Source: a virus. From it: 64,000 nt of DNA. Below are positions 1 to 60,305 of the stretch, piece by piece. The stretch covers positions 32,001 through 96,000 of the IMG/VR virus record IMGVR_UViG_3300025849_000010; one strand, written 5' to 3'. The position numbers and the translations under genes are program-made. The notes beneath the pieces are model-generated. The model was not told where the DNA came from and ran no database searches. It worked only from the letters and a program-made list of their open reading frames with translations. Every line of letters begins with the position of its first letter. The stretch's first letter is position 1.

Positions 1-1
1 A

Positions 2-226: not shown

Positions 227-243
227 GTCTACTATTCCATATT

Positions 244-267
244 AAGTGCGCATATAAATATATTTAT
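244..267. promoter_or_regulatory. Bidirectional T4-type late promoter (TATAAATA on +, TAAATA on -) with AAGTGCGCATATA motif
   Basis: TATAAATA at 253-260 and perfect palindrome ATAAATATATTTAT at 254-267, lying between divergent genes. Confidence 0.65.
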
Positions 268-303
268 GAATAGTAGCGATTGCAAACAGGAGTACTGAAT
301 TTC

Positions 304-1536: not shown

Positions 1537-2907
1537 TTCAGGAAACGTTTCTGCAAAATTTGTTCCCCGGCGGCGATCGTGTTCTTTAAACCAAGCAACA
1601 AAATCCTTGCGGCCTATTTCTAATTTGTCTTGACTGTACTCAGTAGTGCGCATGTAGTCTACAACACGACGAAACTTTTCATATTCAAGTTTAGAAAACT
1701 TATTAACATCATATTCATCTAGATTACTTTGGATAAAAGCTAAATGACTTTCCATATAACTCATAAAGTGCTTAGGCAAAATATTCATATCATACTGGAT
1801 CGGTTCTTTTAAATACGGAGTGTCAAAGCGGATACGAGTTGTATCATTTTGATAATGCGCTCTCCATTCTAAAAACTTTTCAAGTAATGATTGAAATGTC
1901 GTTACACTTAGTATGTTAAATGTAACCATAAATGTAATAGGCTGATCAGTTTTTGTCATCCAAGTGTCAAAATTCTTTTCCCATACATTTAGATCTAAGT
2001 TAGTTCTAATGTACTCTGCAGGTTTACCCCAGGTATCTAAACTAGTAAACAATTTAAACTTTTTAATTTTCTTTTCTTCTATTAGCTTGTTTACTCTTTC
2101 AGCAAGTCTTACTACTAAAATATTTTTTACTGCTAGGTTAGAATTTATGTTTATTTCAAGATGCGGCTTCGGATCTCTATCTAGTTCATCTAGCAATCTC
2201 CACATACTCTGCTGCAACAATGGTTCCCCGCCTGTGATGCGTAAAATGTTTAATGTTTTACTAACTTCGGGCCACCATTCCCACCATGCTGCTACATAAG
2301 GGTTTTCTTCTTCCTTTTTGTAAATGTTTAATTTGTTTATATGCTGGGTATGATTTTTAACCATATTATATGGGCCAAATTGTTCTATTTCTTTATAGTA
2401 ACTACTACTAGCCTTAGGATGACAATATCCGCATTTTAGATTACACTCGTTACCAAACGACACTTCGATGTATTCAGGATTAATATTAAAGTCCCAGTCG
2501 TTATTAATAATTTCAGCAAGTCGATGTTTATTGTAAATACCCGAATTTCGTTCATGCCTGTCACTGACATAATCTTTGCCCATACATTCAATGTTCCAGC
2601 AGTACTGACATCCACTAGGTTTTTCACCTTGCAACATTAGCTTACGCTGTTCTTTCTTTTCTTGGGTGTTATGTAACGCACTAGGATTTTCTTTTATTTC
2701 GTGTAACGGAATCTTATGTGGAGCAGGGTGATAACAACTGTGTGTTTCTCCTGTTTGTAAATAGATAGTTGTGTGGTGCCACTTTGCTAAACAAAATGTT
2801 GGAGACACTTTATCTGTAATTTGTTTTACTTCTGCCATTCGATCAATTGGATCTTTTACAATCTTCAGTCGCCGAGCAAGTTTTTTAACTAGCTTATTCA
2901 ATGTCAA
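1519..2907 (-). CDS. Radical SAM protein with N-terminal Twitch/SPASM-like Cys cluster
   Basis: CNLKCGYC (CxxxCxxC), ITGGEPLL, and N-terminal CLAKW..SCYH..CQYCW. Confidence 0.85.
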   Translation of the reverse strand: MTLNKLVKKLARRLKIVKDPIDRMAEVKQITDKVSPTFCLAKWHHTTIYLQTGETHSCYHPAPHKIPLHEIKENPSALHNTQEKKEQRKLMLQGEKPSGCQYCWNIECMGKDYVSDRHERNSGIYNKHRLAEIINNDWDFNINPEYIEVSFGNECNLKCGYCHPKASSSYYKEIEQFGPYNMVKNHTQHINKLNIYKKEEENPYVAAWWEWWPEVSKTLNILRITGGEPLLQQSMWRLLDELDRDPKPHLEININSNLAVKNILVVRLAERVNKLIEEKKIKKFKLFTSLDTWGKPAEYIRTNLDLNVWEKNFDTWMTKTDQPITFMVTFNILSVTTFQSLLEKFLEWRAHYQNDTTRIRFDTPYLKEPIQYDMNILPKHFMSYMESHLAFIQSNLDEYDVNKFSKLEYEKFRRVVDYMRTTEYSQDKLEIGRKDFVAWFKEHDRRRGTNFAETFPELENIF

Positions 2908-20390: not shown

Positions 20391-23300
20391 TTATTTAGGA
20401 AACGAAACTGTTTGGGCACGTAAGAACTTGCCTATTGCATTTTCTGTATCTGATAAACTTTCTCCACGATTCTGCCATATTACACCCTGTTTACGCTTGA
20501 TTACTATCTTTGCGCCTACTTTTGGAGCAACTGTTAAACGCACAGACGGTGTTCCATTAACACTAAAATCTGCAGGTAACCCGCTGTCACCTAACGGACT
20601 TAGCTGGTCTTTGTCTGGGTTATATAATGTGCATGGCGCTTTGTTCATTCTCTTACCCTCTACAAAAACTTCAATATCATCTGCTTGTCCATATGTCTCA
20701 GGAATTGATGTTGCAGTTGGGTCAAATTCGTTATTTCTGTTCCAACCGTTGTTTGCTCTTACTGTAGCTGTATTTAACTTCGGAGTGTATGGAAGCGAAT
20801 ATTCTTGTGTTATTCCGTCACCGTAAAATACTTCAGTAAGCTCTGTGTCAAGATAATCAATTGTTAAACTCTTACCTTGATTTAGAACTTCTGTCGCAGC
20901 ATGATAAATTTCTTTAGTAGCAGTGCCATACGTTCCTCTTCTTAGTTGTGATAGTATATTTCCTTCTTTCTTCATGTACTCAATACGTTCTGATCCAACG
21001 AATATAATTCCTGGAACGTTTTGTCTTACAATTGGATCGTCTAATACACTAGCATCATCTACCTCAATACTGCTGTCATACCAATTTAGTAATGTAGTTA
21101 ACTTTGTTGACTTTTCAGTATTAACTGCTTTGTAATGAGTTCTATTCAAGTTATCAGTAAACTGTCTAAATGCAAAACTCTTTTCAACTGGATCATAATC
21201 AAATATAACAATACTAAATGTATCAGTGCTGTTAATATTACGAGCAATATCAACTTGTACTGCGGTGCCGCCTTCGATTAGTGTGTAATCTCTGTGAGGA
21301 GTTAACAAAGAACCGTTGATTGCAACTAGTACGTAGTTTGCATTTGAAACTGGTGTGCTTAGAAGAATAATTCCGGCATTGCCTGCAACACTACTACGGT
21401 ACCATTTGCTTGCAGGAGTTAATGTACGTCTACTTAGTACGCTCTTAGATTTATGCTGAGTGTCAAACACATCAGTGTTGTAAAAACTCATAATCATCAA
21501 GTTTGTGCCGCTCGGTAATGCAGTAGGAGTTACTAACTTTCCGTTCATCACATAGTATTGTGCATTTGTCATGATGAATACTTTTATCTCTTGACCTAAT
21601 TTAAGTTTACCAGCAATGAAAGCAATTGTGTTAGATCCAAAATCAATTTGGTAATCAACCCCTAGTTCTTTAATTATACCGTCTACATAAACTTCTGTGT
21701 GTCCTGAACTAAACTCGCCATATTCAAAGTCACTTAGGTCAACTTGAAAGTCGTCTGCGCCGTTAGCTGTAAACACCTGTGTGTATCCGCCATTTAACAT
21801 TTTGTCATCAGCAAATACTACTAAGAAGTTAGCACTTGGAGAAGCACCATACGGAGTGTCATCAAGATCAAACTGTGTTGTACTACCGTCAGCTGTTTCT
21901 AGCTGCTTTTGTATGTAACTATAATCTGGAGACTCGTCGTTATATACTGTGTATTTGATGTCAGCGTTAGTTGGCGGAGTTGGATCAAAATCTAGACCTA
22001 GTCTGTTAGATTCTTGGTAAGAATCATCTGTTACAAGCAATCTTGGCTTAACTCGTTTGCCATTAACTGTTGCAAATACTCTTAGGTCTTTAGTATATTT
22101 CAATGGAGTAATAAATTCGCTTGTACTTCCGTCGCCAGTAAATCCGTCAATTAAAATAATATCATTGCCGTTTGTACCAAATGTCATAATAGTAACAACA
22201 TCGTTTACGCTTGGTACTGTATTCAATATTATAGTTTTACCTGGATTAATCAGGTAATCATTTAACGACTGTATATTAACATCTAACTCTGCTACTTCAC
22301 TAGTTAGCAATGTTTTTTGTGGTTGCAAAGTAGATAGTTCTGTTGTATAATCACTAATAGCTATAGATAGTTGTGATTCAGTTTCTACTAGTGCAGCAAG
22401 GTCTACTGTTTCTTGACTAAACTGACTATTGTAACCCGACAACTGACCTTGCAGAACACTAATCTGGCTTAGTAAACTAGCTAGCTGACTTTCGTAAGTA
22501 GGACTCTGAGGACTAAGCGATGCAACCTGTGACTCTAATGAAGCAATTTGAGACTGTGTAAAGAGTATACTATTTTCAATTGCATCTAGTAACGACTGCT
22601 GATTGATTATTTCAACTGCAATGTCATCTAATTGTGTTTCTAATGGAGCAATTAATACCTGTAGTTCGTCAATTCTAGACGAAACTATAGTAAGCTGTTC
22701 TTCTTTAATAGCCTTGTTACTTTCGTATGCTGTTAAGAAGTCAGTGTACGCTGCAAAGTTTGGAGTATACTGATACTGGTTTGGACGCAGGATCTTATTA
22801 TTAACTTTTATTATTAGCGCATCTTTACTTTGCGGATCTGCAATATAAGCAAAACTCTTAGTGCTTCCATCTGCTACGTAACTAATGCTGTTAATCTGTG
22901 GGCCGCCACTACGTGACAAGCTATAAACAAACATGTCAATAGATTCCGAAACGTGCCCCGGAACTTGCTCTTCTAAGCCGCCGCTTGTAGTTGGTGTAAC
23001 AAATCCGTCGCCATCCATTGTGATATCTTCTGGATTATACCCAGTAGCTTGAGCATATCCTAGATCGCCGCCGTTAACAATACTATCAATATCAACGCCT
23101 ACTGGGATGAAGCTGCCATCACTTGTTGATTTTCTTAAGATAACTTGTTCTTGTCCTGCATCACCTAATATAACACTTGACAAATTCTGTAACGGAATAG
23201 TAAAGTCTGTTGTTTCTCCGTCACCTGCAATAGTTTGCATTACTGCATTTGTATTCGTTATGCCTGTTCCTACATTCCAGTTAGTATCATCAATACGAAC

Positions 23301-26300
23301 TCCGTTTACATAAACGTTCCATATGTCATCAACCGCAGGTGCAGTTGCAAATGTATAAGTTAGCTCAGTAGCATCATTGTAAAGTGTGATATCTGTAAAT
23401 GTTTCGTCACTACCTTCCCAAGTTACGTTGTCCCAACTTGTTCCGTCTGTGCCCCAACCGCCTGAAGGTTCAAATCCAAAACCTGTTACGCTTACACCGC
23501 CATAGTCTACGCCTGTCATTAACGCAGCCGGGTCTTTTGCAAGTTGTCCAACAGTTGGGTTGTAATAATAGTTAATTCTATCATAGGCCCTTAAGAACGA
23601 AATGTCTTTTTTGTATTCAATAGTTAAAGTTTCGGTTGCTTCTGCTGCTATTAATATTTCTAAATGTCCGAACAACTTAGTTAGTCCGTCGACTTTAGTA
23701 GTAGCATTTCCTAAACTATATTCGCTGTCTAGCAATTCCTCGCCATTAATTTTAACAGTAGTTAAACCTTTTCTTAAATCAGCTGGCCACTTTAGCGCAA
23801 ATGTTGTTTGCACGCCTGTGCCTAAAAATGTTTCTGTAACATCTAAATTTAGTACTTCTGATTGACCTAGTGTCCTATCAAATTTAATTGTTATGTCGTT
23901 TTTACGAATTGTATTATTATCAATGATAGCAATAAGTGTAGCAGTTTCGCCTGTATCATCAACTGAGCCGTTAATAATTACATCAGGTCTTGAGTAATAC
24001 CCAGTTCCTGAATTAGTTACCACAACATTAGTGATTTTTCCGCCACTACCGATATATGCTTTAGCTGTTGCGCCGCGGCCGCCGCCACCGCTGATTGTTA
24101 ACTCAGGTGCTGTTTGATAACCTATACCGGCATTTTGTATTTGTATATCACTTACACCGTATGTGTGGTTATCTTTCCAACTCTGATCTGGATATATATC
24201 CAACGATGTATTTCCATCTAATACTAGATCGTTATTAAACACTTTAATGTTATTTGTTGATTTTAAATCAAAGTCAGTGGTTAGTGTGCTAACTACTTCA
24301 GTTTTGTTATAGCTACTTACAAATTCCCTTACTTTAGTTCTATATGGTTTTACTTCGTTGATGTAATCTTGATAAGAAGTTAAACTATCATTTTTATATG
24401 TAATTCTCTGTTCTAGTTCTCCTACATTGTGTTTTGCCTTTACAAAACTTGTTTTAAAGATCCAGTCAACTGGTGTCTGTTCAGTTAACACATAGCGAAC
24501 ACTGTTAAAGAATAAGTTGTTAAATTCTACTTGTAAGTTATCAATAAAGATATTATTACGGATAGCATCAAGAATGATTCTTGCTTCTTGAGTCGGAATA
24601 CTATCGTAGTTTACTTCTTCATAACTAATACCGTCATATCCTAATACGTTTTGATCAAAATCATATAATGCTGAACTTAATTCTATAGTTGCCTTTTCTC
24701 TTCCAACTACAGTATAGTTTAAGTTGATATCACTTTCATTAGTTTCATTATTTCTCTTTAATAGTAACCAAGTTCCGCTACTGCCGACATTGGTAATTTT
24801 TACTATTTGTCCAGGGCGCGGCGAAATATTTAATAATTGGTATGACCCGTCAATTAAGAAATCAATCGGTGTATTTGCAGTTACGCCAGATGAATACCAA
24901 TCTCTGTAAGTCCAGTAACTTGACACATCATACGATTGTATTCTAGTTAGCTGCCAGTTCTTGTTTCTAGTATCGTAAACATATAGTCCCCACTTGTTAG
25001 TATTATTAACGTTTGTACTTAGAACTGTATATTGTCTAACTACTGCATAAGTATCGTCTATATATCCAGTACCTGGGTTAACAATAGAGACGCTGTCTAT
25101 TCTACCAAATGCATCAATAGTTGCTTCTAATACTGCATCTTTACCTTGGCCTACTACCGTGATGTCCGGTGCTTGTAAATATCCTCTACCAGGATTGTCA
25201 ATAACAACATCTGTTATGTTGCCGTTTTCAATTCTTAAACTAATATCAGCAGTAGTAAGTTTACCAGTAGCAATAAAGTTTAACTCTAAGTCATCGGATA
25301 TTTCTATGTCAAACAGTTTTGATTCTGCTGTTGGTACTAATTCTTTCTCAAAGAACGGTGATATGTCGAAGTCGTCAACAAGTATGTTTTTAGAGAATAC
25401 ATAGTTAATGTATTCAATTGCTTGTTTCATTGCTTCGATTCTATTTTTAAACATGCCCTGTCTTGGCTTATTTAAAATACCGTAGCGTTGCTTTTCTCCT
25501 AGATTTGGATTTGGCACTGGATAACCATCAGTTGTAAATCCAACTAAACTATCATACCACTTTTTAATTAATAGGTCATTAGGTATACTAATATCTAAAC
25601 CTTCAGAGATAATTTGGTATTGTCTATGTATGTTAGTATCAGTTTTGTCTGTTGTCCAGAATCTAATATTAACTGCAATGTCTGCATCATTTAGATATTG
25701 TTTGGCATTATATAGTACAAAACTATTATTACTGGTTATTGCTATGTAGCTATATCCCTGTCCGCTCGGATCTTTAATTAGATTAGCAATAGACGCAACA
25801 TCGATTGCTCTTCCGTCTTTCTGAGGCACAGTTGTTTTATTTTTAACCCAGAACATATATTTGTTTGTAAATATTTTTGCTATCGGATCGTACTCTTTAG
25901 CAATTACATAAGAAGTATCTCCGTATTTTGATGTTCCGGTAATACCTAGTGCAGGGCCTTCGTCTGATGCAGATAGCTCATCGTATACACTTGGTTTGTA
26001 CTTTGAACTTACCCATTCGTACACATCAATACTGCCATATTGGTTTAATTTACTCCAATTGTTAGCTCTATATAATGCTGAGTTTTGATGATAGTTTACA
26101 AAGCGTGAAGTTGTTAAGTCCCACCATACATCGCCTACATTAGTTGCGTCCCAGGCTCCAACTTCATCAATGTTTACACTATCGTCACCAACAGTATAAA
26201 CTGCTGGATCCCAGAATGTTTTATATTTTATTTCTTGATCAGCAGGTCCTGCAATTTTTCCTTGTAAAGGATCAATAATGTCTAGTTCTTTTACTAACAC

Positions 26301-29300
26301 ATTTGTTCTAGTATTGTACAAGAACGCACTTTTAATTTTTGATACATCAGCCGGAGCAACTGCCTGTCTACGAGTATTCCAGCTAGTAACATTACTTGTT
26401 CTATAAAAGTCGATTATTGCGCCGTTTCTGTTGTTGTAGTTAGGCACACCTGCAATTACATGATTTTTATTTGCAAGAACATTTGTTCCTAGATTAATAA
26501 CATCTCTGTCAGCTAGTACAATTGAATCTTCGTAGGTAAACTTGCCGTCATATCTGTAGTATACATCTATTTTTCCTGTATCTTTAAATATGTTTGATAA
26601 GTGGGTTGCATTAGAGTCAAAAGTTGTATTATCCGATAGTGGAGTTCGTTCAACTTGATCTCCACGACGTGAACCTATAACTAGATTATTATCTGAAATA
26701 CTTACTTTGTTTCCAAATTCTTGATTTGCAGAAGATCTAACTTCAATCGTTTGCTCAATAACAAAATTAGCAGCATTACTTGACACAGCTTCTTGATTAT
26801 TTAGAACAAAAACTTTACCAGTATCAAGTTTGTCAACGCTGTCATATTTTGGCGAGCCAATTACTAGTGTTTGTGCATCTTCAGTTAAACTAATACTGTG
26901 TCCAAACACGTCTCCGGATGCATCGTTATCGCCAAGTGTGCTTGAAGATATCGTTTGTACAAGATTGTATACATCATTTTCGTAAGTATAAACAAATACC
27001 TTTCCGTAAACACCAGTAGTATCTACTGCAATTTCTTCCCAGTTAGGAGCTGCTGGAGCAGTACCAGCACTTGCTGTTGTTAATTTTTTCCAATATAGCC
27101 CATTATACTTAACTGCTTCATTGATAGCATAAGTTGCAGTATTAATATATTCGCCTTTAAAGTTTTCAACAATTGCACTGTTTGCAAAAGGCGCATTAAC
27201 TGTGAGTATGTTGCCGTTGTCTGATAATTCAACATCGACACCAAAGTCCATTGAAGCGTTAATTACTTCAACAGTGTTACTTCCAGTAGCAGCAAGGGGT
27301 AAAGACTTAGTAGGAGCCCATTGCCATTTGCCGCCTGTGCTTAGATTCCAGTCAAACACATAAACTTTACCAATACCGTCATGTCCAGGTGCCGACACAA
27401 ACATTCTGTAGTCTAACTTTCCTACTTCTTTAATAGTAATGTTTTCGCCAAAACGCTGACCCGGCTGTGGTTCAGGAGACTGCATAATAAACAATAAGTT
27501 AAAGTTGCCGCTGCCGGTTCTTACATATACCGACACCCAGCCTTGATTTGTAATACCTGATGTAGCTGTTGATTTTCCTTCAACTTCGTTGTAACCTAAT
27601 TCAACCCAATCGCTTACTAAGTTCGGCGGTGTAGCATTTAAACCGTTAACAATTGCTTTGTAGAATTTATCTTGGTAAACAACAACATCTTCTTGAACAT
27701 AATTTGCGCCGGCATTCCATTCGCCTGTAAAATATGTAGGAACATCGCTGGCATTTGGTACACCAACTGCTAAAAACTTTGTATCCGGAGACAGTGAAAG
27801 CACTTGTCCAAAGCCGCCGTATAATGGTGATGTTTCACTTACACCATAAGCTGGACTAAACTCTGTTTTGGTTAGCGATGTAGGAAGCTCAATGGTTTGT
27901 ATTAACCTATGTTCAGTTAAATCATTTGCTCTAGCATATACATATACTGCTGCATCTGAGGTTGTAATAACCTTTTGCAATACATCAGTATCTTGATCAC
28001 GCTGTTCTATACTTGTAGTCGAATATGCAGGATCACCTACTACAAAATCTCTATTATATCTGTCAACTGCCACACTTGTGCCGTATGTGCCAGTTGTATC
28101 AAAAGTATTTGAAATTATATTTTTCTGATAAACTTTATTTTTTTCTAATACTTTCCAGTTGTTGTTTATTCCATCAACCCAGACAAGCTCGCCTTGTGAA
28201 AAGCCGTCGATAGGAGTAATAACATTTATTTCGTTAGTATCTGAAATTCTAGCATGAACAAAATTGTAAAGAATTCCTTGACTGCTATCTTCAACTGTAA
28301 CATCGTCGTCTAGTTTCTTATCACTTTCAACTGTAACATCATAACTGTTAATTGATTTAATTTTATAGAATTTATCAACATCTGGGGAAACGTTCTTAAC
28401 GCCAATTACATCTCCAACTTCTGCAACAAGCAATTCGTTAGTTCTTAAAATAATGTCTGTGCCGCTGCCTCTTTTTGCCGACAACACATTTATTTTTGCA
28501 TCTTGCATTCTTAGTACGGTCCAAGAAGCATTATAGAAACTTACCCAAACAGTTGAGCCTACATTAAAATCATCAATATTTAATGCTGCAATGTCATCTA
28601 CGTATTTTACACTAAAATCAACATCATTTTCATCTACGTTGCCTGCTGTTCTAATAAAAGAAGGTATTTTAGTAGTAGCTTTGAACGGAGCATGATTGTA
28701 ACCGTCATATGTTACATACGCTTGATCCGGAGTATATCTATAAACCAAGTCAGTTGTATTAGAATCAATAACCGATACTAGCTCAAACGGCTGTGGTTCA
28801 AGTCTAACAAATTCTTCATCAATTTTATATTCAACTTCAACAAAGCTATCTACTGCGCCATAATCGCCTGATCTGATAGCCCACTCTTCATAAAAGTTAA
28901 GACTTTCTTTATCAGCTGCGCCGAGCTTGTCAAACATTTTGTTTAGTACATTTTTTGTACCTTTGTCAAGAATCATACCTTGATAAAACTTATACTGACT
29001 CACATCGTCATTAATAATGTTTTCTAGGTATCTGCGTTTTTGGTAACCAATGGTATGCTGTGCTAACCGCTGCTGCTCTGTGTCAAAGTTGTCTGTGTCT
29101 AGATCAAAGAAATCTGTAAACTGTTCGGCTCTGTAATCAAAGTTTGGAATTAAAGTACTTTGTTGAATTCCAGATAGGCGTTTCCAATTTTCTTCGTTAA
29201 ATACTTCTCCAGAAACTATTTTATCTTCTGCACTATAATAAAACTCTTTATGTTTTACTACGTCACCAATTTGGAACTGTGTAAACGGTGTCCAAGATTT

Positions 29301-32300
29301 AACAGTAACTTCATCAAAGATAAATCCCGGAGTAGTTAATCCACCATCCCATAAAACAGTTTTGTATCCCAATACCTTTACACGATCTTGTCTGTAACCT
29401 GCCGGTTTGTCGTACAACGTATCAGCAAACACTGTTGTATTGTCTATTAAAAGTACATGTTCTGTTTGTACTAAGTGTAGTCTAGCAAAATAAATGCCGT
29501 CATCGCCTAAAGTTTCTAGTGTGAATTTATTATTTGCTCTAGTAACATCTAGATCGTTTATCGATATACGAGTTCCTGCACTATTGTATATTTCATAGTC
29601 ATAAAAGTCATTTAGTAAACTATCAACATTAGTATAGTCAACATTGATTGTAAATGTTTTTGCACCCGGGCTAAGTGCAATAACAGTGCCTTCTGACCAA
29701 TTCTGTGTTGTCCAGTATACAAACTCTTTAACCGAAGTGTCCCAGTCTTGTAGTATAGAATTTTCGTTATCATAGTTGTCAAATACAAAACCAGCTTCAG
29801 CTAGGTAAGCACCGTATCCATACATAAAGTCAACAACAGCTTGTACAGTAGGTAATATTGTACCGTAATCTAATGTGTAATATGCACTGGTATCGAAGTT
29901 GCTTCTATAAAAATAGCTGTTGCCGCCGACTGACGGTAAGGAAGGTAATTTAACAAATTTATCAGAATCAAAAGTATCACTACTAAAGTGATCTTCACGA
30001 CATCTGTAATAGATTCCGTTATACTCAACAATTTTACCTTGGATATAAGTTTTTTCACTATCCCAAGAAATAAATGACTCGCTAACTGCGCCTATTGTTA
30101 TTTGGCTGTCGTTTTGAGAAGTTATTATTCTACGATGTTGGAAGTATGGAAACTTTTGATCATATCCCTTTATTAAGAATCCGTTGGTTCTTTTTTCAAC
30201 TATAACGCCACTGTACGATAATACGTCCACAGGGCTACTTGTGTTTAACACAATTTGATAGTTTTCTTCTGGAATGAAAACATTTCCTTCATTCAAAGGA
30301 GTACGACTATCTAGTATTAATCTAAATTTAGACTTTTCTGTATATCCTGCAAGTTTTGCACCTAGCTGGTTATTTGCATTTTTTAAATTAAAAGAATAAT
30401 CAGTAACAAACGACTCGCCTGTTTGATATAGCCAATTGTTAACATAAGAAATCAAACCGCTTGCAAGTGCAGTATTAGACACTTTATCTGCAAGACCCGA
30501 AAGTGTTGGATATTCTCCCGCATATTTAATAATGCCACTGACGTCACGGGAAGTATGAGCGCGATCTAAATATACTCCAAATATTTGTGCAGGCTTAGTT
30601 AAGAACCAAGCGCACAGCAGTGAGAAGCGATAACTACTTGATCGTCTCCAAGCGTTTTCAACTGGTGATTGATCGCCAAACGCATATTCTGCACCGAACT
30701 CAGCTGATTCGTAATTTTGTGCAATATTTGCTTCAATAGGATCTCTAAGTCTTCCGTTTGCATCTACTGGAATGATATCCAATAAGCCAGGACGACTAAA
30801 GTCATTGTTAATTCTATTATTACCAGGTTCTTTAATACGGCCTACTTCTAAGTCTCTCCACATTAGTAAGTTTTCACTAGTGTACGGAGCCGGGCCGTAT
30901 TCATCTTCCCACCAACTTGGCATGATGCTGAAGCCTAGCATCTCCCAAGGCGTTAAATGAGGTCTGTCAGTATCGTACCAATAGTTGTATATGCCTCTCC
31001 AAAATCCTGGAAGCTGTTTATCTTTATACGAACCAGTCTTATAGTTATAGGTAAACTGATTACCAGTCTCGAACCAAACATTATCAGTGTAAGACACATT
31101 AAGATTTTTATGCCATTTTAAAAACAAAGGTCTTAAAATGTTATCTATTTCTTTTAGACTATATTCGCCTGTTCTATTAGCGCCTGGCTTAAAGGAATAA
31201 AAATCAACAAGGTCGTTAGTATATTCAATTTTAATATTGTTATATATTCTACGTTCTAGTTCAATGATTAAGTCATCTCTGTAATCATTAAATGCCAGTA
31301 TTACACTTCCGTCGTGTCCTTGAATTACATTCTGCGGAGTTTGTAAAGTAGTGTCTAAATATTTTTTAGGCTCATACTTAGGCAACAATCCTAATCTAGC
31401 AGGAGTAGGAGCAATATAGTTACCTACTAGTGTGCTATACTCTCGAATAACAATAACATCGTCGACTTCTTTTGCTACATTAATTTTAACAAAATTATCA
31501 TTAATGAACTCGTACTCTGATCCTAGTAACAGTTGTGTATCGTTTAGATAAACTAATATCGCTTTGTCTTGATGCTTGTATGGTTCAAAAATTTCTGTAA
31601 TACCGTAAAGTTCAAACGTTGGGTCAATTACAGTATGTCTAATTTCGTTAAATGCTCTAAAAGGAACCATGCCACTATTATAGAAGCTATCAGTCTCTTT
31701 GTTTTCTGCTGTGATACTTTCTAAAATAGTATCAACATCTATATTAGGCGTTCCTAAAATTTCGTCTGTAGAAATTTTATCTAAGAATGTCTTTTGAAAC
31801 TTGTCATAACTTTTTGCAGCATAATCAAGAGATTTAATAATGTTTGTATCCTTGTTAGTCAAGTGATACATCGCTATGTTAATCGGTCCAGAATGCTTAA
31901 CAAAGCGGCTGCCGTAAGCACTAACTGTTCCTAGGTCTCTAATATTAGAAATTCCTGGGAATGTTCCTTCAACTGCTGGTGCTGCATTAAATATAGTCTC
32001 AACGTGATCAGTAATTTCGCCTAGCGTAATTTGTGTAGGATCTTCGTTATTAGGATTGTTTTGCAAGTTCAATGGAAACTCGTAATACCCATTTTCATTT
32101 TTGTTTGCAAGACTATGTGTTTTAATAATAACGCTTGAATTTTCGTTCAAGTCATTTGCAAAATGAACATATAATCTATTGTTCTGTGTTACTAATGTAA
32201 AATGATTAGTAATTTTGTTGTTTACAAATACTTTAACATCTAAATCAGTTAATAGTGCAGCATCATTGTATACATCAATCTCAAAATCGTTTCTATTTAA

Positions 32301-34304
32301 GTCAGCAATATAGTGTCTAATGACTTGCTGAACACTATGAGACGCCGCACGTTCCCACGCACTGTGATATCCAAAGTTGCCAAGTCTATTGTAAACTTTA
32401 ATATAGCTGTCTTTTGCAATGATCGAATACTTTTTCTCATTTTTAATATAGTCATATGTGTCTGTTAGAATATTAGAGCTAAACAAAATATCACCAATAT
32501 TACTAATACTCAAATACTTAATAGGAAATCCTAAAACTGTATCTGGAGCTCCGTTGCCGGTTTGATAAGAGAACACATAGTTCCCTTTGAAGCTAGTTGA
32601 ACCATACTTTGTAGTGTCACTCAGTGATTCACCGTCAGCATCAAATAGATCAAATAACGGAAACTGGTTAGGTTCTGTTTTCTGCTGTGCTTCAGTCCAT
32701 TTTGTTCCGTCAAACCAGAACTGCTTACCTTGATTTAATTTTCCGGATTTAACTACTAATGTGTCGCCTACTACATTGTTCTGTACATCTGGAATTAATG
32801 TTATGATTCGTTCATTATTAAATCTAACAAAATTCACAGTAAACACTTTATCACGAATTAGTAAATCGTTATCAGCAGTAAAAATAACTCGCATGCCTTC
32901 AATAAGATTAATGTTATCAACGTAATATCCTGTTGTTCCTTCAATCTCCGACATAATATCTGTTGTCACTGTGTCAACTAGATCAATATCTCCAACACGG
33001 TTCCAGCCATTATTAAACAACTGAATTCCTGGAATAAATTCGATAATCGGTCTACTTGCTCTTGCTGATTGATCTAATATCGGAGTGGTGCCAGAAATTT
33101 CATAACTAGTTTCAATAACAGATTTATGTATCCATCTGTTTGCACGGCTCCAATGGTTGCCGTCGTATGCTGCGCGGTTAATTGTAATATAGTCTTTATC
33201 TTTTTCTGAGTTTTGATCAAACGGATTAACGTCGAATCCAATATCATCAAACTGCAATTCTTCTAATGCTTGGCCGGGATATAAAGTTTCTAATTCTTGT
33301 TCACTTATTAGAATAATTTCTTTACCAACACCTTCAACATACCAGTTACCTTTAGAATACTTTTCAGGAGTAACATCGCCTAAGAAGTTTACTTTCATTC
33401 CGTTACTTAACTGATGTCCAGTCTTTAGCTGGTATTCTTTTTTGCCAACTAACTCTTTATCAATATCAATTTCAGTATTTTGATCAATTGACAGTACTTG
33501 AATAAGTCCAGACGAATCTAAATCATTTGTGTTTACATAATGTAAAATATCAGGAGTGTTTTGATCAATAGTAATTGTAACTGTACCTACTTCAGTACCA
33601 TTGTTATCAATTTTTTCGTTATATTCGAATCCTGTTTTTGTCTTTTTTGTTTTAATCCAAAAAGGATTATTTTTTTGATTTACTTCAAATTTATATGTTA
33701 GACCTCTATAAAGTTTAATAGTAGGATTTCTAGTAAGTCCGTCAGGATTGAATACAAACGCATTACTGTCGCCGTCGTTAACAATCTTAACAGTGTATGT
33801 ACTTGTAACACCTTTTTCTTGGCCTGCAATACTTATAGCAACAGGGCCCTGGCTTACCCAGTAATACTCTCTATAGTTTACTAACTTGTCCCAATCAACT
33901 CGAGGATCCCAAGAATAATATTCTTGAGAATTTAGTCTGTTATGATTAGTTGTGTTAGCGCCGAAAGCACGTAATTGGTTAATATAATCATTATAGTCTT
34001 TGTAGTATACTACATTATCATTGTTGTCTTTAACAATTAATGCAGGCTCTAATTGATAATTTTGACGATCGTCAGATATATCTGGAATATAGTTATCATC
34101 GGTGGAAAACGCCTTAGATGTTTTTCTACCTAGATATCCATTTATTTTTTCAATAACACCGTCTTGAATTAACGGGTCTAATGTAGCGGACAAAAACTTT
34201 TTATTAGTAGTAGACCTAAAATATTTAGGTAACAGATCTAACGATGTTTTTCTTTGTTCGTTGTTTTCGCCTGGAAGATTAATTTCTTCTTGATCTTTTG
34301 CCAT
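20391..34304 (-). CDS. Giant (4637 aa) baseplate wedge / virion structural protein (gp7-position)
   Basis: Uninterrupted ORF directly after gp6. Contains FG-GAP-like propeller blades, small aromatic CBM-like repeats, GxGY Ig-like repeats and GDGSTxxF repeats. Confidence 0.7.
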   Translation of the reverse strand: MAKDQEEINLPGENNEQRKTSLDLLPKYFRSTTNKKFLSATLDPLIQDGVIEKINGYLGRKTSKAFSTDDNYIPDISDDRQNYQLEPALIVKDNNDNVVYYKDYNDYINQLRAFGANTTNHNRLNSQEYYSWDPRVDWDKLVNYREYYWVSQGPVAISIAGQEKGVTSTYTVKIVNDGDSNAFVFNPDGLTRNPTIKLYRGLTYKFEVNQKNNPFWIKTKKTKTGFEYNEKIDNNGTEVGTVTITIDQNTPDILHYVNTNDLDSSGLIQVLSIDQNTEIDIDKELVGKKEYQLKTGHQLSNGMKVNFLGDVTPEKYSKGNWYVEGVGKEIILISEQELETLYPGQALEELQFDDIGFDVNPFDQNSEKDKDYITINRAAYDGNHWSRANRWIHKSVIETSYEISGTTPILDQSARASRPIIEFIPGIQLFNNGWNRVGDIDLVDTVTTDIMSEIEGTTGYYVDNINLIEGMRVIFTADNDLLIRDKVFTVNFVRFNNERIITLIPDVQNNVVGDTLVVKSGKLNQGKQFWFDGTKWTEAQQKTEPNQFPLFDLFDADGESLSDTTKYGSTSFKGNYVFSYQTGNGAPDTVLGFPIKYLSISNIGDILFSSNILTDTYDYIKNEKKYSIIAKDSYIKVYNRLGNFGYHSAWERAASHSVQQVIRHYIADLNRNDFEIDVYNDAALLTDLDVKVFVNNKITNHFTLVTQNNRLYVHFANDLNENSSVIIKTHSLANKNENGYYEFPLNLQNNPNNEDPTQITLGEITDHVETIFNAAPAVEGTFPGISNIRDLGTVSAYGSRFVKHSGPINIAMYHLTNKDTNIIKSLDYAAKSYDKFQKTFLDKISTDEILGTPNIDVDTILESITAENKETDSFYNSGMVPFRAFNEIRHTVIDPTFELYGITEIFEPYKHQDKAILVYLNDTQLLLGSEYEFINDNFVKINVAKEVDDVIVIREYSTLVGNYIAPTPARLGLLPKYEPKKYLDTTLQTPQNVIQGHDGSVILAFNDYRDDLIIELERRIYNNIKIEYTNDLVDFYSFKPGANRTGEYSLKEIDNILRPLFLKWHKNLNVSYTDNVWFETGNQFTYNYKTGSYKDKQLPGFWRGIYNYWYDTDRPHLTPWEMLGFSIMPSWWEDEYGPAPYTSENLLMWRDLEVGRIKEPGNNRINNDFSRPGLLDIIPVDANGRLRDPIEANIAQNYESAEFGAEYAFGDQSPVENAWRRSSSYRFSLLCAWFLTKPAQIFGVYLDRAHTSRDVSGIIKYAGEYPTLSGLADKVSNTALASGLISYVNNWLYQTGESFVTDYSFNLKNANNQLGAKLAGYTEKSKFRLILDSRTPLNEGNVFIPEENYQIVLNTSSPVDVLSYSGVIVEKRTNGFLIKGYDQKFPYFQHRRIITSQNDSQITIGAVSESFISWDSEKTYIQGKIVEYNGIYYRCREDHFSSDTFDSDKFVKLPSLPSVGGNSYFYRSNFDTSAYYTLDYGTILPTVQAVVDFMYGYGAYLAEAGFVFDNYDNENSILQDWDTSVKEFVYWTTQNWSEGTVIALSPGAKTFTINVDYTNVDSLLNDFYDYEIYNSAGTRISINDLDVTRANNKFTLETLGDDGIYFARLHLVQTEHVLLIDNTTVFADTLYDKPAGYRQDRVKVLGYKTVLWDGGLTTPGFIFDEVTVKSWTPFTQFQIGDVVKHKEFYYSAEDKIVSGEVFNEENWKRLSGIQQSTLIPNFDYRAEQFTDFFDLDTDNFDTEQQRLAQHTIGYQKRRYLENIINDDVSQYKFYQGMILDKGTKNVLNKMFDKLGAADKESLNFYEEWAIRSGDYGAVDSFVEVEYKIDEEFVRLEPQPFELVSVIDSNTTDLVYRYTPDQAYVTYDGYNHAPFKATTKIPSFIRTAGNVDENDVDFSVKYVDDIAALNIDDFNVGSTVWVSFYNASWTVLRMQDAKINVLSAKRGSGTDIILRTNELLVAEVGDVIGVKNVSPDVDKFYKIKSINSYDVTVESDKKLDDDVTVEDSSQGILYNFVHARISDTNEINVITPIDGFSQGELVWVDGINNNWKVLEKNKVYQKNIISNTFDTTGTYGTSVAVDRYNRDFVVGDPAYSTTSIEQRDQDTDVLQKVITTSDAAVYVYARANDLTEHRLIQTIELPTSLTKTEFSPAYGVSETSPLYGGFGQVLSLSPDTKFLAVGVPNASDVPTYFTGEWNAGANYVQEDVVVYQDKFYKAIVNGLNATPPNLVSDWVELGYNEVEGKSTATSGITNQGWVSVYVRTGSGNFNLLFIMQSPEPQPGQRFGENITIKEVGKLDYRMFVSAPGHDGIGKVYVFDWNLSTGGKWQWAPTKSLPLAATGSNTVEVINASMDFGVDVELSDNGNILTVNAPFANSAIVENFKGEYINTATYAINEAVKYNGLYWKKLTTASAGTAPAAPNWEEIAVDTTGVYGKVFVYTYENDVYNLVQTISSSTLGDNDASGDVFGHSISLTEDAQTLVIGSPKYDSVDKLDTGKVFVLNNQEAVSSNAANFVIEQTIEVRSSANQEFGNKVSISDNNLVIGSRRGDQVERTPLSDNTTFDSNATHLSNIFKDTGKIDVYYRYDGKFTYEDSIVLADRDVINLGTNVLANKNHVIAGVPNYNNRNGAIIDFYRTSNVTSWNTRRQAVAPADVSKIKSAFLYNTRTNVLVKELDIIDPLQGKIAGPADQEIKYKTFWDPAVYTVGDDSVNIDEVGAWDATNVGDVWWDLTTSRFVNYHQNSALYRANNWSKLNQYGSIDVYEWVSSKYKPSVYDELSASDEGPALGITGTSKYGDTSYVIAKEYDPIAKIFTNKYMFWVKNKTTVPQKDGRAIDVASIANLIKDPSGQGYSYIAITSNNSFVLYNAKQYLNDADIAVNIRFWTTDKTDTNIHRQYQIISEGLDISIPNDLLIKKWYDSLVGFTTDGYPVPNPNLGEKQRYGILNKPRQGMFKNRIEAMKQAIEYINYVFSKNILVDDFDISPFFEKELVPTAESKLFDIEISDDLELNFIATGKLTTADISLRIENGNITDVVIDNPGRGYLQAPDITVVGQGKDAVLEATIDAFGRIDSVSIVNPGTGYIDDTYAVVRQYTVLSTNVNNTNKWGLYVYDTRNKNWQLTRIQSYDVSSYWTYRDWYSSGVTANTPIDFLIDGSYQLLNISPRPGQIVKITNVGSSGTWLLLKRNNETNESDINLNYTVVGREKATIELSSALYDFDQNVLGYDGISYEEVNYDSIPTQEARIILDAIRNNIFIDNLQVEFNNLFFNSVRYVLTEQTPVDWIFKTSFVKAKHNVGELEQRITYKNDSLTSYQDYINEVKPYRTKVREFVSSYNKTEVVSTLTTDFDLKSTNNIKVFNNDLVLDGNTSLDIYPDQSWKDNHTYGVSDIQIQNAGIGYQTAPELTISGGGGRGATAKAYIGSGGKITNVVVTNSGTGYYSRPDVIINGSVDDTGETATLIAIIDNNTIRKNDITIKFDRTLGQSEVLNLDVTETFLGTGVQTTFALKWPADLRKGLTTVKINGEELLDSEYSLGNATTKVDGLTKLFGHLEILIAAEATETLTIEYKKDISFLRAYDRINYYYNPTVGQLAKDPAALMTGVDYGGVSVTGFGFEPSGGWGTDGTSWDNVTWEGSDETFTDITLYNDATELTYTFATAPAVDDIWNVYVNGVRIDDTNWNVGTGITNTNAVMQTIAGDGETTDFTIPLQNLSSVILGDAGQEQVILRKSTSDGSFIPVGVDIDSIVNGGDLGYAQATGYNPEDITMDGDGFVTPTTSGGLEEQVPGHVSESIDMFVYSLSRSGGPQINSISYVADGSTKSFAYIADPQSKDALIIKVNNKILRPNQYQYTPNFAAYTDFLTAYESNKAIKEEQLTIVSSRIDELQVLIAPLETQLDDIAVEIINQQSLLDAIENSILFTQSQIASLESQVASLSPQSPTYESQLASLLSQISVLQGQLSGYNSQFSQETVDLAALVETESQLSIAISDYTTELSTLQPQKTLLTSEVAELDVNIQSLNDYLINPGKTIILNTVPSVNDVVTIMTFGTNGNDIILIDGFTGDGSTSEFITPLKYTKDLRVFATVNGKRVKPRLLVTDDSYQESNRLGLDFDPTPPTNADIKYTVYNDESPDYSYIQKQLETADGSTTQFDLDDTPYGASPSANFLVVFADDKMLNGGYTQVFTANGADDFQVDLSDFEYGEFSSGHTEVYVDGIIKELGVDYQIDFGSNTIAFIAGKLKLGQEIKVFIMTNAQYYVMNGKLVTPTALPSGTNLMIMSFYNTDVFDTQHKSKSVLSRRTLTPASKWYRSSVAGNAGIILLSTPVSNANYVLVAINGSLLTPHRDYTLIEGGTAVQVDIARNINSTDTFSIVIFDYDPVEKSFAFRQFTDNLNRTHYKAVNTEKSTKLTTLLNWYDSSIEVDDASVLDDPIVRQNVPGIIFVGSERIEYMKKEGNILSQLRRGTYGTATKEIYHAATEVLNQGKSLTIDYLDTELTEVFYGDGITQEYSLPYTPKLNTATVRANNGWNRNNEFDPTATSIPETYGQADDIEVFVEGKRMNKAPCTLYNPDKDQLSPLGDSGLPADFSVNGTPSVRLTVAPKVGAKIVIKRKQGVIWQNRGESLSDTENAIGKFLRAQTVSFPK

Positions 34305-37762: not shown

Positions 37763-37792
37763 GTGCTTCTCTTACCTTAACTTAGTATAATG

Positions 37793-37822
37793 TATTTATT
37801 TGATTGAGATATCTGCGTACTT
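37793..37822 (-). promoter_or_regulatory. Late promoter TAAATA plus AAGTACGCAGATA motif upstream of gp6
   Basis: TATTTA at 37793-37798 (+) and motif at 37810-37822. Confidence 0.55.
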
Positions 37823-51003: not shown

Positions 51004-51022
51004 CGTGTAATTCTCCTAAGGA

Positions 51023-51064
51023 TAAATATATAAAAGTATTTATGCGACATAAAGTACGCATATA
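51023..51064. promoter_or_regulatory. Divergent late promoters plus AAGTACGCATATA motif
   Basis: TAAATA on + at 51023-28, on - at 51037-42, motif at 51052-64. Confidence 0.6.
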
Positions 51065-51087
51065 TCATTACTGATTAAGGAAAATTT

Positions 51088-55691: not shown

Positions 55692-55757
55692 TTTATTGTA
55701 TAGATAGTAAATACTTATTGACAGCCTTGTAATATTACGAACATATAGGAGAGAACA

Positions 55758-58290: not shown

Positions 58291-59463
58291 ATGAAAATGT
58301 CAGAACTACTAGAAAGCCGCTGGTCGGACACTAAATCAGCACTGCTCGAAGGCCTAGAAGGCAATCGTAAGTCAGTAATGGCTGTTACACTTGAAAATAC
58401 TCGCAAGTATTTGTCAGAGAGTGCTACAGCAGGTGCTACCTCCGCCGGTAACGTCGCAACTCTTAACAGAGTTATTTTACCCGTCATCAGACGTGTAATG
58501 CCAACAACAATCGCAAACGAATTAGTTGGTGTTCAGCCTATGACAGGACCAGTGGGCCAAATCCACACACTAAGAGTACGCTATGCTGATTCAGCAACAG
58601 GTGTAACAGCAGGTGAAGAAGCTCTATCACCATTCAAGATTGCTCAAGGTTACTCAGGTAACGATGCAGCTGATCCAGATGGTAAAGCTAACAACACTGC
58701 AACACTTGAAGGTGCAGCAGGTAAGCGTATGTCAATTCAGATCTTGAAACAGACTGTTGAAGCAAAGTCACGCAAGCTATCAGCTCGCTGGACATTTGAA
58801 GCAGCTCAAGACGCACAGTCAATGCAAGGCATTGATGTCGAAGCTGAAATCATGGCAGCTCTTGCACAAGAGATTACAACTGAAATTGATCAGGAAATCT
58901 TAAACAGTCTACGTTCATTAGCAGGAACAGCTTCAGAGACCTTTAACCAGGCTGCTGTAAGTGGTACTGCTACTTTCGTTGGTGACGAGCATGCTGCATT
59001 AGCTGTTCTAATCAACCGTCAGGCTAACAAAATCGCACAACGCACTCGTCGTGGTGCAGGTAACTTTGCTGTTGTATCGCCATTCGCGTTAACAGTATTG
59101 CAGTCTGCAACTACTTCTGCGTTTGCACGTACTACTGAAGGTACATTTGAAGCACCAACAAACACTAAGTTCGTTGGAACATTGAACAATGCAATGAAAG
59201 TATATGTTGATACATACGCTTCTGATGCAACTGACGTTCTTGTTGGCTACAAAGGTTCTTCAGAATCTGATGCTGCTGCATTCTACTGCCCATACATCCC
59301 ATTGATGTCAAGCGGTGTTGTACTAGATCCAGATACATTCGAGCCAGTAGTTAGCTTCATGACACGTTATGGTTATGTTGAACTAAACAACACTGCATCG
59401 TCACTAGGCAATGCAGCAGACTACGTCGAGCGTGTTGCGATTTCGAACGTAAGCTTCAGCTAA
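58291..59463 (+). CDS. Major capsid protein, T4 gp23-like
   Basis: IRRVMP..IANELVGVQPMTGPVGQI, VEAKSRKLSARWTFEAAQD, EIDQEI, FYCPYIPL, FMTRYG. Confidence 0.96.
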   Translation: MKMSELLESRWSDTKSALLEGLEGNRKSVMAVTLENTRKYLSESATAGATSAGNVATLNRVILPVIRRVMPTTIANELVGVQPMTGPVGQIHTLRVRYADSATGVTAGEEALSPFKIAQGYSGNDAADPDGKANNTATLEGAAGKRMSIQILKQTVEAKSRKLSARWTFEAAQDAQSMQGIDVEAEIMAALAQEITTEIDQEILNSLRSLAGTASETFNQAAVSGTATFVGDEHAALAVLINRQANKIAQRTRRGAGNFAVVSPFALTVLQSATTSAFARTTEGTFEAPTNTKFVGTLNNAMKVYVDTYASDATDVLVGYKGSSESDAAAFYCPYIPLMSSGVVLDPDTFEPVVSFMTRYGYVELNNTASSLGNAADYVERVAISNVSFS

Positions 59464-59483
59464 GTTTTATTTTATATAAAACG

Positions 59484-59512
59484 AAAATAGCACCTTCGGG
59501 TGCTATTTTTTT
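59484..59512 (+). terminator. Rho-independent terminator after the capsid gene
   Basis: AAAATAGCACC-TTCG-GGTGCTATTTT followed by a T run. Confidence 0.9.
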
Positions 59513-59609
59513 GACTAAATTTTAATGATTTTACGGATGACTTTTAGGTACAAATATGTTTAAATAGTAATGTAGTAAATTTTTATTAACTTAATTTATG
59601 GAGTACACT

Positions 59610-59681
59610 ATGTGGACAACACCGAAAGCAACAGAGATGAGATTCGGCTTCGAAGTAACGATGTATGTGATGAACAAGTAA
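59610..59681 (+). CDS. pqqA: Pyrroloquinoline quinone precursor peptide PqqA
   Basis: MWTTPKATEMRFGFEVTMYVMNK*: 23 aa with W..P and R.GFEVTMY (ExxxY); GGAG SD at 59600-03; TAAATA at 59561-66. Confidence 0.93.
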   Translation: MWTTPKATEMRFGFEVTMYVMNK

Positions 59682-59742
59682 CAACATTACCAGAAGTAGA
59701 TATGAGCAAGCTAATAGAAACATTAGATTGTGAGTAAAACAT

Positions 59743-59767
59743 AGCCCGCATATTAGCGGGCTTTTTT
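59743..59767 (+). terminator. Rho-independent terminator after pqqA
   Basis: AGCCCGC-ATATTA-GCGGGCT followed by TTTTT. Confidence 0.85.
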
Positions 59768-59798
59768 GTCTGCATATAATGCTTTCAGTCGATATGGA

Positions 59799-59888
59799 TA
59801 AATACTTTTGTTATAGAGATATCCTCTATTGCGAGGAATTATGCGGAAACCCGCCGCGTAGACCTAGAACGTCAAAAAGGAGAAAACA
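59799..59888 (+). promoter_or_regulatory. Late promoter and structured 5' leader
   Basis: TAAATA at 59799-804, then several hairpins before the AAGGAG SD. Confidence 0.55.
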
Positions 59889-60305
59889 ATGGGACGTCCA
59901 CTTAATAAAAGATACTTCGGAGAACCAACTGCCGGAGGAAACGAAATCAAAGTACAATTTCACAATGGAACAGCTAGTGTAAACGGCTGGATCGTTAAAC
60001 AAAAAGGTTCAAAAAAATTCTTATGCTCAGACGGAACTGTCGAAGCAACATGTGTACTAGTTGACAAAGCATCAGGCGCAGTAGCAGCTGGTGAAATGAC
60101 TATTACAGTACTTGACGGTGCAACACCACGTCAGGTAACAAAGATTGCTGCACACAAAGTAACAATGGATAACGGTTTAACTATTAACTGGGACTTCACT
60201 GGAACTGGTGCAACTGTTGAAATGGAAGAAGCAGGCGATGATGCTGTTATCGACAATGTAGGCGTTGATGAAGACGACTTCGAAGGCGATGACCCAGCAC
60301 CATAA
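59889..60305 (+). CDS. Hypothetical virion/head-associated protein
   Basis: 138 aa with strong SD and its own late promoter; IVKQKGSKKF; acidic tail. Confidence 0.65.
   Translation: MGRPLNKRYFGEPTAGGNEIKVQFHNGTASVNGWIVKQKGSKKFLCSDGTVEATCVLVDKASGAVAAGEMTITVLDGATPRQVTKIAAHKVTMDNGLTINWDFTGTGATVEMEEAGDDAVIDNVGVDEDDFEGDDPAP

Follow-up and report, generated by a model that had tools for sequence, protein, structure and literature searches.

The closest described relatives of the element considered here come from phages of Lake Baikal. PqqA, the peptide precursor of the cofactor pyrroloquinoline quinone (PQQ), was reported in a T4-like phage of Methylophilaceae (population VP_266; Coutinho et al. 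2020, Microbiome 8:163, PMC7678222) in a study that also described a viral methanol dehydrogenase as well as radical SAM genes, and in which viral PqqA was proposed to play an auxiliary role in methanol oxidation. Here, we describe a pqqA gene on a 64,000-nucleotide (nt) stretch of viral DNA, referred to as the window, which comprises bases 32001-96000 of the 159,618-bp IMG/VR record IMGVR_UViG_3300025849_000010 (CheckV completeness 44%). Like the VP_266 phages, its carrier is a T4-like, low-GC phage with a predicted Methylophilaceae host and with radical SAM genes; unlike them, it has no methanol dehydrogenase gene on the 159.6-kb fragment. Viral pqqA itself is not new, because it was published in 2020 and at least 150 IMG/VR contigs carry it, so that the doubt about novelty voiced in an earlier note on this DNA was justified. 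The published account (PMC7678222) covers neither cassette anatomy, promoter and terminators nor distribution or an overlapping frame. What is new here is that pqqA moves as a whole cassette that includes a conserved control region of its own, apparently outside the phage late programme, and that there is statistical evidence for a second selected frame in a gene of 72 nt, with a phage-only peptide tail. Nothing relevant to an overlapping frame in pqqA was found in the literature, and as far as found the cassette variant with a private control module and a tail-bearing overlapping frame is undescribed. Taken as a whole, we are fairly confident that the locus is an auxiliary metabolic gene cassette of a jumbo T4-like Methylophilaceae phage, with both a substrate supply and a second frame.

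Several other systems resemble the locus in part. Cultured Methylophilales phages carry a stand-alone 23-codon pqqA that is 73-96% identical to the copy described here, but their genomes are 35-45 kb long, or 141 kb in the case of Melnitz, whereas the present phage is a jumbo phage (about 360 kb estimated) with the gene fixed behind gp23. Orphan pqqA copies of Methylophilaceae chromosomes share 22/23 identity, short stand-alone transcription units and the spacing of the ribosome-binding site (RBS). They differ in being without the upstream module TTAATGATTTTACG...TGTTTAAATA (1 match to its distal block in 0.9 Mb of bacterial pqqA loci) and without the LET.DCE tail (0/361 Methylophilaceae genomes), and their +2 frame is closed in 65/68 unique copies. 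Morons are autonomous promoter-gene-terminator insertions between late genes, described for lambdoid phages. As in morons, a gene of host-like sequence lies between structural genes together with a promoter and a terminator of its own, and related genomes have it in alternative slots and in either orientation. Classical morons, however, are found mainly in temperate phages and carry lysogenic-conversion functions, while the present case is a cofactor precursor in a lytic-type T4-like jumbo phage. Overprinted genes such as lambda Rz/Rz1 and those of phiX174 are similar in that two constrained frames share one DNA stretch and the selected part of the newer frame lies at the margin of the older gene or beyond it. 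In contrast to those examples, the older gene here has just 23 codons, the candidate starts are 2 nt apart on one RBS, and the second frame is known from sequence only.

The gene is a 72-nt ATG-to-TAA open reading frame (ORF) whose translation, MWTTPKATEMRFGFEVTMYVMNK, has 23 residues. The peptide scores 40.9 bits against PF08042, the Pfam PqqA family (cut-off 21.1), and 39.9 bits against the NCBIfam equivalog TIGR02107 (cut-off 20). With scores about twice the curated cut-offs, its assignment to the PqqA family is well beyond chance. The Glu-x3-Tyr pair is present as Glu15-Val-Thr-Met-Tyr19, Glu15 and Tyr19 being the residues that are cross-linked. For the host scan, one genome per prokaryotic species was searched with the core GFEVTMY; titles are missing for about a third of the loci, some top matches included. 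Among records with listed titles, 22 of the 23 residues are identical in Methylotenera, Methylophilus and other Methylophilaceae. Identity is lower elsewhere: 20/23 in Methylobacillus, at most 17/23 in Methylovorus and in metagenome-assembled genomes of Burkholderiales, 15/23 in Methylophaga and at most 14/23 in Pseudomonas. The ORF, its peptide, the GGAG Shine-Dalgarno sequence and the location downstream of the major capsid gene had been read in the earlier note exactly as they are found here (Table 1). The near-identity to Methylophilaceae PqqA stated in that note agrees with the 22/23 match, and the family identity that it had proposed is borne out by both protein family models.

Relatives were gathered by degenerate DNA patterns, the query being a peptide of 23 residues. 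In IMG/VR the core pattern matches at least 120 contigs. The PqqA ORF is intact in all 120 copies examined, with no frameshifted or truncated phage pqqA among them, and the products are mostly 20-22/23 identical to MWTTPKATEMRFGFEVTMYVMNK. Neighbours of viral pqqA include a YqaJ exonuclease, DUF3310, two endolysin types, a different capsid protein and replication proteins. A search of 50,697 GenBank phage records gave ten good matches. Nine are phages isolated on Methylophilales/Methylophilaceae (MEP301, P19250A, Venkman, MEP401, MEP402 and four Melnitz), in which the gene is mostly unannotated, and the tenth is a spring metagenome phage. Every cultured Methylophilales phage in GenBank carries pqqA. 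For example, P19250A, which is said to encode none of the reported auxiliary genes (PMC7678222), has an unannotated copy (GenBank KX815270.1 28085-28153) that is 95.7% identical to the one described here. The phage-gene flanks of the window's copy (gp23 and structural genes) and the recurrence of the gene in Methylophilales phages mark pqqA as a phage auxiliary metabolic gene. JGI and ENA gene callers call the +2 ORF (39-60 residues) and leave pqqA uncalled (L285:6001-6126, P0001-P0013); because the longer ORF is taken instead, pqqA is invisible in routine viral annotation.

Nineteen contigs of this lineage, with capsid proteins 83-100% identical, have the cassette behind gp23. A related T4-like lineage, whose terminase and UvsX are 62% and 82% identical to those of this phage, has it in 16 contigs between a gene for a protein of about 980 residues and gp32, a slot that is empty in this phage. 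In the relative L127 (L127:1000-1602; capsid protein 83% identical) the cassette occupies the gp23 slot in inverted orientation, convergent with the capsid gene and sharing its terminator. Because the cassette is inverted there, expression of that copy must come from the cassette's own promoter. In a separate lineage of small phages, pqqA stands directly after a different capsid gene in 12 contigs. These arrangements indicate a self-contained, moron-like transcription unit that moves between slots and orientations. We regard as established what the gene is, how the cassette is built, that its sequence is host-like and that the module moves as a whole.

Upstream of pqqA lies a module that is specific to the cassette, TTAATGATTTTACG-N-TGTTTAAATA. 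Its consensus over 15 unique cassette variants is TTAATGATTTTACGTAT, a spacer of 19 nt (18 nt in L285) and TGTTTAAATA(A/G)TA, and the latter element is kept in all cassette variants of both slots, the inverted copy included. The sequence TGTTTAAATAGTA 5' of pqqA has a single, intergenic occurrence in the contig. The distal block (Table 1) is also found 5' of pqqA in unrelated small phages; it may serve as an UP element or be bound by a regulator. Compared with sigma-70 promoters, the candidate promoter reads as ATGACT-N17-(TG)T-TTAAAT, with 4/6 matches in each hexamer. The -10 element is without the usual A at position 2, the -35 region varies among variants, and the promoter scan does not call it. 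As read from the sequence, the pqqA promoter looks more like the sigma-70 extended -10 type than like a phage late promoter, and the regulatory module seems to belong to the cassette, not to the capsid operon. A small upstream ORF running from ATGATTTTACG to GTTTAA (12 codons in many variants) was considered and rejected, there being a 1-nt frame shift in L285 and early stops in L253 and L261. In seven phage pqqA copies (L043, L045, L076, L081, L095, L128 and L131) a structured-looking leader of about 40 nt (GACTCAAG.GGGACTTG...CTCTCCCG) is present between the promoter and the RBS of pqqA; the leader of the window's own pqqA is unstructured. Strong TTGACA-N17-TATAAT early promoters also occur on the contig, e.g., upstream of window positions 7597 and 44912.

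Two intrinsic terminators bound pqqA as a stand-alone unit, as had been proposed earlier, and both fold well. The hairpin of the capsid-gene terminator (59483-59510) with its U-run has a folding energy of -15.9 kcal/mol (z -6.0), and that of the cassette terminator (59743-59762) with its U-run -14.0 kcal/mol (z -3.7). The stem of the first shows compensatory changes in L106 and L127 (GCACC/GGTGC, GGACC/GGTCC, GGCCC/GGGCC). In all but one of the variants that bear the tail described below, a hairpin and T-run lie 0-6 nt past the stop codon of the tail; the exceptions noted are L281, which has only an A/T-rich stretch, and L073, which is without an adjacent hairpin. The capsid-terminator hairpin AGCACCTTCGGGTGCT recurs with its T-run and an identical stem just 5' of the terminase gene (G000:C1:143050-143090, beyond the end of the window).

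We infer that the host of the phage is a member of Methylophilaceae. Neither pqqB, pqqC, pqqD and pqqE nor a PQQ-dependent alcohol or methanol dehydrogenase was found on the 159.6-kb contig (about 44% of the genome), a search that the earlier note had proposed, and no PqqD or domain for recognition of peptides that are made on ribosomes and modified after translation (RiPP) was found on it. The absence of pqqB-E does not decide membership in PqqA, since orphan pqqA copies are normal in the host family. PqqE scores above the curated cut-off in 57/61 sampled Methylophilaceae genomes, streamlined ones of 1.3 Mb included; therefore the enzymes for using the peptide are available in the presumed host. 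The earlier note had proposed a methylotroph as host and a phage that supplies only the substrate. Both proposals are supported, because pqqB-E and the dehydrogenase are absent from the contig, PqqE is present in these 57 genomes, the peptide has 22/23 identity to host PqqA, and the cultured Methylophilales phages, which account for nearly all the GenBank phage matches, carry pqqA.

PqqA is the sole component of the PQQ pathway that is consumed stoichiometrically. In the mechanism we propose, a cassette with its own conserved promoter module, one RBS, a genuine pqqA and its own terminator would have been inserted behind the capsid-gene terminator and ahead of the late promoter that serves the following structural gene. 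During infection, the phage would flood the cell with PqqA, in which host PqqD/PqqE would cross-link Glu15 to Tyr19, and host PqqB and PqqC, with a protease, would complete PQQ. In this way the PQQ-dependent XoxF/MxaF methanol dehydrogenases, and hence the energy supply, could be kept running as host transcription declines. Phage pqqA is a known, under-annotated case of a virus supplying the one consumable part of a cofactor pathway, and it is relevant to the influence of viruses on methanol turnover in lakes and coastal seas.

The cassette also holds an ORF of the +2 frame, absent from the earlier note, that runs through all of pqqA into a tail (Table 1). Its GTG lies 2 nt after the pqqA ATG behind the same RBS, and it is probably where the second reading frame starts. 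The coding stretch of the tail (59702-59737: ATG AGC AAG CTA ATA GAA ACA TTA GAT TGT GAG TAA; tail KLIETLDCE) ends 5 nt before the terminator. Similar peptides are encoded in three other contigs, and across variants the tail consensus is (K/R)L(I/L)ET(L/Q)DCE. The protein collection contains 13 unnamed clusters of the +2 ORF (39-60 residues), and the tail is invariant in 14 protein sequences, namely the window ORF and the 13 representatives of these clusters. In IMG/VR the pattern Leu-Glu-Thr-x-Asp-Cys-Glu-stop occurs in 34 contigs, 30 of which have PqqA immediately upstream. It was not found in 120 bacterial pqqA loci and none turned up in cultured Methylophilales phages, whose copies were not examined for the +2 frame. 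The +2 product matches no family in Pfam and NCBIfam and gave no usable match in the Atlas search.

Selection on the second frame is suggested by the codons of pqqA itself. The +2 frame is open across pqqA in 16/16 unique tail-bearing copies, compared with 0/99 unique other viral and 3/68 unique bacterial copies. A synonymous T that would create a stop in the +2 frame is used at 0/59 sites of tail-bearing copies, against 58/165 at harmless sites of the same copies (p 1.3e-9) and 217/379 in other viral copies (p 4.5e-20). For example, Phe12 is TTT in 13/16 tail-bearing genes and Phe14 is TTC in 16/16, TTT-GAA being a combination that would read TGA. In the tail, pN/pS (the ratio of nonsynonymous to synonymous polymorphism) is 0.16, a sign of purifying selection on the product, with synonymous sites near saturation: Arg alternates between AGA and CGT, Leu among CTA, TTG, CTT and TTA, and the Asp, Cys and Glu codons alternate as well. 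The other two frames of the tail are interrupted by stops, and insertions and deletions in the linker from pqqA to the tail always preserve the frame of the tail with the GTG. Two other ways of making the tail were rejected. An independent 11-codon micro-ORF from the internal ATG (59702) is at odds with the open frame from the pqqA start and with the variation of that codon, which is not conserved and is ATA (Ile) or GTG in several variants. A programmed -1 frameshift leading from pqqA to the tail would need a slippery heptamer, and none is present; initiation is favoured over it because the +2 frame is open from codon 1. On balance we lean, though not strongly, towards a +2 frame that is translated and functional. 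With the same slight preference, we envisage a widespread, dual-coding cassette variant in which one RBS serves two starts 2 nt apart, yielding PqqA and a protein of 36-47 residues whose conserved, phage-specific tail would be the functional part, perhaps acting as a second substrate or as an effector on the host PQQ/methanol-oxidation machinery, the unit being mobile among jumbo T4-like phages of methylotrophs. The second product is, at our best guess, a small effector or a peptide substrate delivered alongside PqqA; that the acidic, Cys-bearing tail is a substrate for phage peptide-modifying enzymes is speculation. If the second product is real, the locus would be a compact model for overprinting on a micro-gene and would point to an uncharacterised phage factor linked to PQQ metabolism.

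Four observations weigh against a translated second frame. Because the tail-bearing copies are mutually related, the counts are not fully independent and both p values overstate independence; initiation at a GTG beside a strong ATG would be weak; the product's N-terminal half differs sharply between subfamilies (RNAFWFRS vs RDEIRLRS), because it is dictated by pqqA codon choice; and the close relative L127 is entirely without the tail. The alternative that the ORF is untranslated, with its openness and tail due to shared cassette ancestry or to an RNA or attenuator-like element before the terminator, is a serious competitor, if a less probable one. The tail-bearing copies are confined to two related phage lineages, the stop codon of the tail stands right against the terminator in the manner of leader-peptide attenuators, ATA replaces the internal ATG in two contigs and in the L252 group, and an Rfam Trp_leader-like match covers the tail and terminator, at a score (21 bits, E 0.11) far below threshold. 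Against this alternative, harmless synonymous sites have diverged freely (35% T) in the very copies whose 59 stop-creating sites are never T, changes in the tail are mostly synonymous and include two- and three-nucleotide swaps of Arg and Leu codons, the other two frames of the tail have stops, and the linker always keeps the tail in frame with the GTG. Also to be weighed is the timing of pqqA. The earlier note had taken TAAATA (59561-59566) for a late-promoter box, in which case pqqA would be wired to T4-type late transcription and made only late, together with the capsid. The T4 late consensus is TATAAATA. The box is indeed there, within TGTTTAAATA at 59557-59566; TTTAAATA is one mismatch from the T4 consensus and shares the TAAATA core of ATAAATAC; its distance of 43 nt from the ATG is in the range of the phage's late motifs; all copies with the box are in T4-like phages; and a second, unrelated capsid lineage likewise has pqqA directly behind a capsid gene (the 12 contigs above). 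The late motif of this phage itself, found by k-mer enrichment in upstream regions of its genes, is nevertheless a different sequence, ATAAATAC (ATAAATA(C)), which occurs in 11 upstream regions, is about 50-fold enriched and typically lies 30-45 nt ahead of start codons. At pqqA the box reads TTTAAATAG, is found once in the contig and has T, not A, at the second motif position in 15/15 unique variants, whereas neighbouring genes keep ATAAATAC; before the next gene the motif reads GGATAAATAC, as it does in L127. Moreover, T4-type late promoters need neither a conserved block 19 nt upstream nor a -35-like element, and the same module also stands before gp32, in a region of replication and recombination genes. 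Thus the box stands but its reading as a late promoter is not supported, and we consider late wiring unlikely. The late motif has the form (G/C)ATAAATAC, and the promoter repertoire of the phage is legible in its few intergenic gaps, e.g., at window positions 59798-59805, 55700-55757, 51004-51087 and 37763-37820; the canonical TATAAATA has 4 occurrences in the contig. TAAATA, TTAAATA and TTTAAATA were rejected as a general promoter of the phage, TTAAATA having 56 occurrences of which just 4 are intergenic.

The supply of substrate to host PQQ synthesis has its own points against it. With the contig about 44% complete, pqqB-E or xoxF could sit in the remaining part, and Baikal relatives carry methanol dehydrogenase (PMC7678222). 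Several pqqA copies are already present in Methylophilaceae, and the benefit of one more is an assumption. There are also about 15 radical SAM genes on the contig, so that use of the peptide on the phage side is conceivable, although none of them resembles PqqE. Two of these genes have an N-terminal SPASM domain, and radical SAM arrays are also found in the relatives G362 and G364, as might be expected if phage PqqA were a substrate of a phage radical SAM enzyme or a decoy tying up host PqqD/PqqE. We think either role very improbable: the peptide is almost the host substrate, Glu and Tyr included; pqqA is also carried by phages of 35-45 kb, with no radical SAM among its common neighbours (about 5 kb on either side); and neither a PqqD domain nor one for RiPP recognition was found on the contig. 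That one of the radical SAM enzymes of the phage stands in for PqqE was rejected, the best score being 31.5 bits against a cut-off of 381, with no PqqD domain. A gene so short and so near to its host counterpart might also be a neutral passenger, either a chance scrap of host DNA or host contamination of a viral contig. Such an origin is hardly credible for a gene that has the capsid gene on one side and more structural genes on the other, within a phage contig of 159.6 kb, whose peptide is kept, in the face of heavy synonymous change, in at least 150 viral contigs and in every cultured Methylophilales phage, and that comes with a phage-specific promoter module and a tail foreign to host genomes. 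Feeding of phage PqqA into host PQQ synthesis is the reading we retain.

Table 1. Features of the pqqA cassette and its flanks, with positions in the window.
Feature	Position	Strand	Basis or details
gp23-type major capsid protein gene	58291..59463	+	phrog_138 major head protein, 3.9e-102; cassette directly downstream
Intrinsic terminator of capsid gene	59483..59514	+	stem 59483-59494 / 59499-59510, UUCG loop, U-run
Conserved upstream block TTAATGATTTTACGGAT, distal part of putative promoter/regulatory module	59522..59538	+	15 unique variants; once in 159.6-kb contig
Candidate promoter: -35-like ATGACT (59537-59542), 17-nt spacer, TG, -10-like TTAAAT (59560-59565)	59537..59566	+	sequence reading
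Shine-Dalgarno GGAG	59600..59603	+	sequence; 6 nt 5' of pqqA ATG, 8 nt 5' of overlapping GTG
pqqA, 23-codon PQQ precursor peptide	59610..59681	+	PF08042 and TIGR02107 (scores in text)
Overlapping +2-frame ORF, 41 codons, GTG inside ATG-TGG, through all of pqqA to tail ...EVDMSKLIETLDCE	59612..59737	+	open frame, stop-avoidance, tail pN/pS
Intrinsic terminator of cassette	59743..59768	+	7-bp GC stem, 6-nt loop, T6; 5 nt after +2 ORF stop
ATAAATAC, T4-like late-promoter motif of next gene (59889-60305), not of pqqA	59798..59805	+	k-mer enrichment

The genes around the cassette are those of a large myophage. On its 5' side are a T4-type portal gene, a prohead protease gene, a scaffold-like gene and then the gp23-type capsid gene; terminase, gp32 and UvsX genes are also on the 159.6-kb contig. 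Jumbo myophages such as PA5oct, GAP32 and Vibrio 2.275.O have capsid proteins about 70% identical to the one encoded here, and the capsid protein of the near-identical relative L285 matches PF07068 (Gp23). The carrier appears to be a fragment of a jumbo T4-like myophage of the PA5oct/GAP32-type capsid lineage. Because the 159,618-bp contig is rated 44% complete, a full genome of about 360 kb is implied.

A few observations concern the wider contig. Very large ORFs are present at window positions 20391-34304 (minus strand, 4637 residues) and 11744-17659 (minus strand, 1971 residues), and two others, of 1500 and 3920 residues, extend past the window, one of them from 61764 onwards on the plus strand; their products are presumably virion, fibre or injected proteins. 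A row of about ten radical SAM genes is found at window positions 1-2907 and upstream (G000:C1:19807-34907; locus L007), accompanied by UDP-glucose dehydrogenase and glycosyltransferase-like genes; the arrays of G362 and G364 have 9 and 6 Radical_SAM matches, respectively. On the 3' side of the cassette, a match to the Rfam freshwater-2 RNA (RF02980) is found at 59821-59891 on the plus strand (52.1 bits vs a gathering score of 49.9, E 5e-7). It lies in the 5' leader of a 138-codon gene, directly after the late motif ATAAATAC, and the stretch is kept in L127. This match hints at a freshwater origin of the phage.

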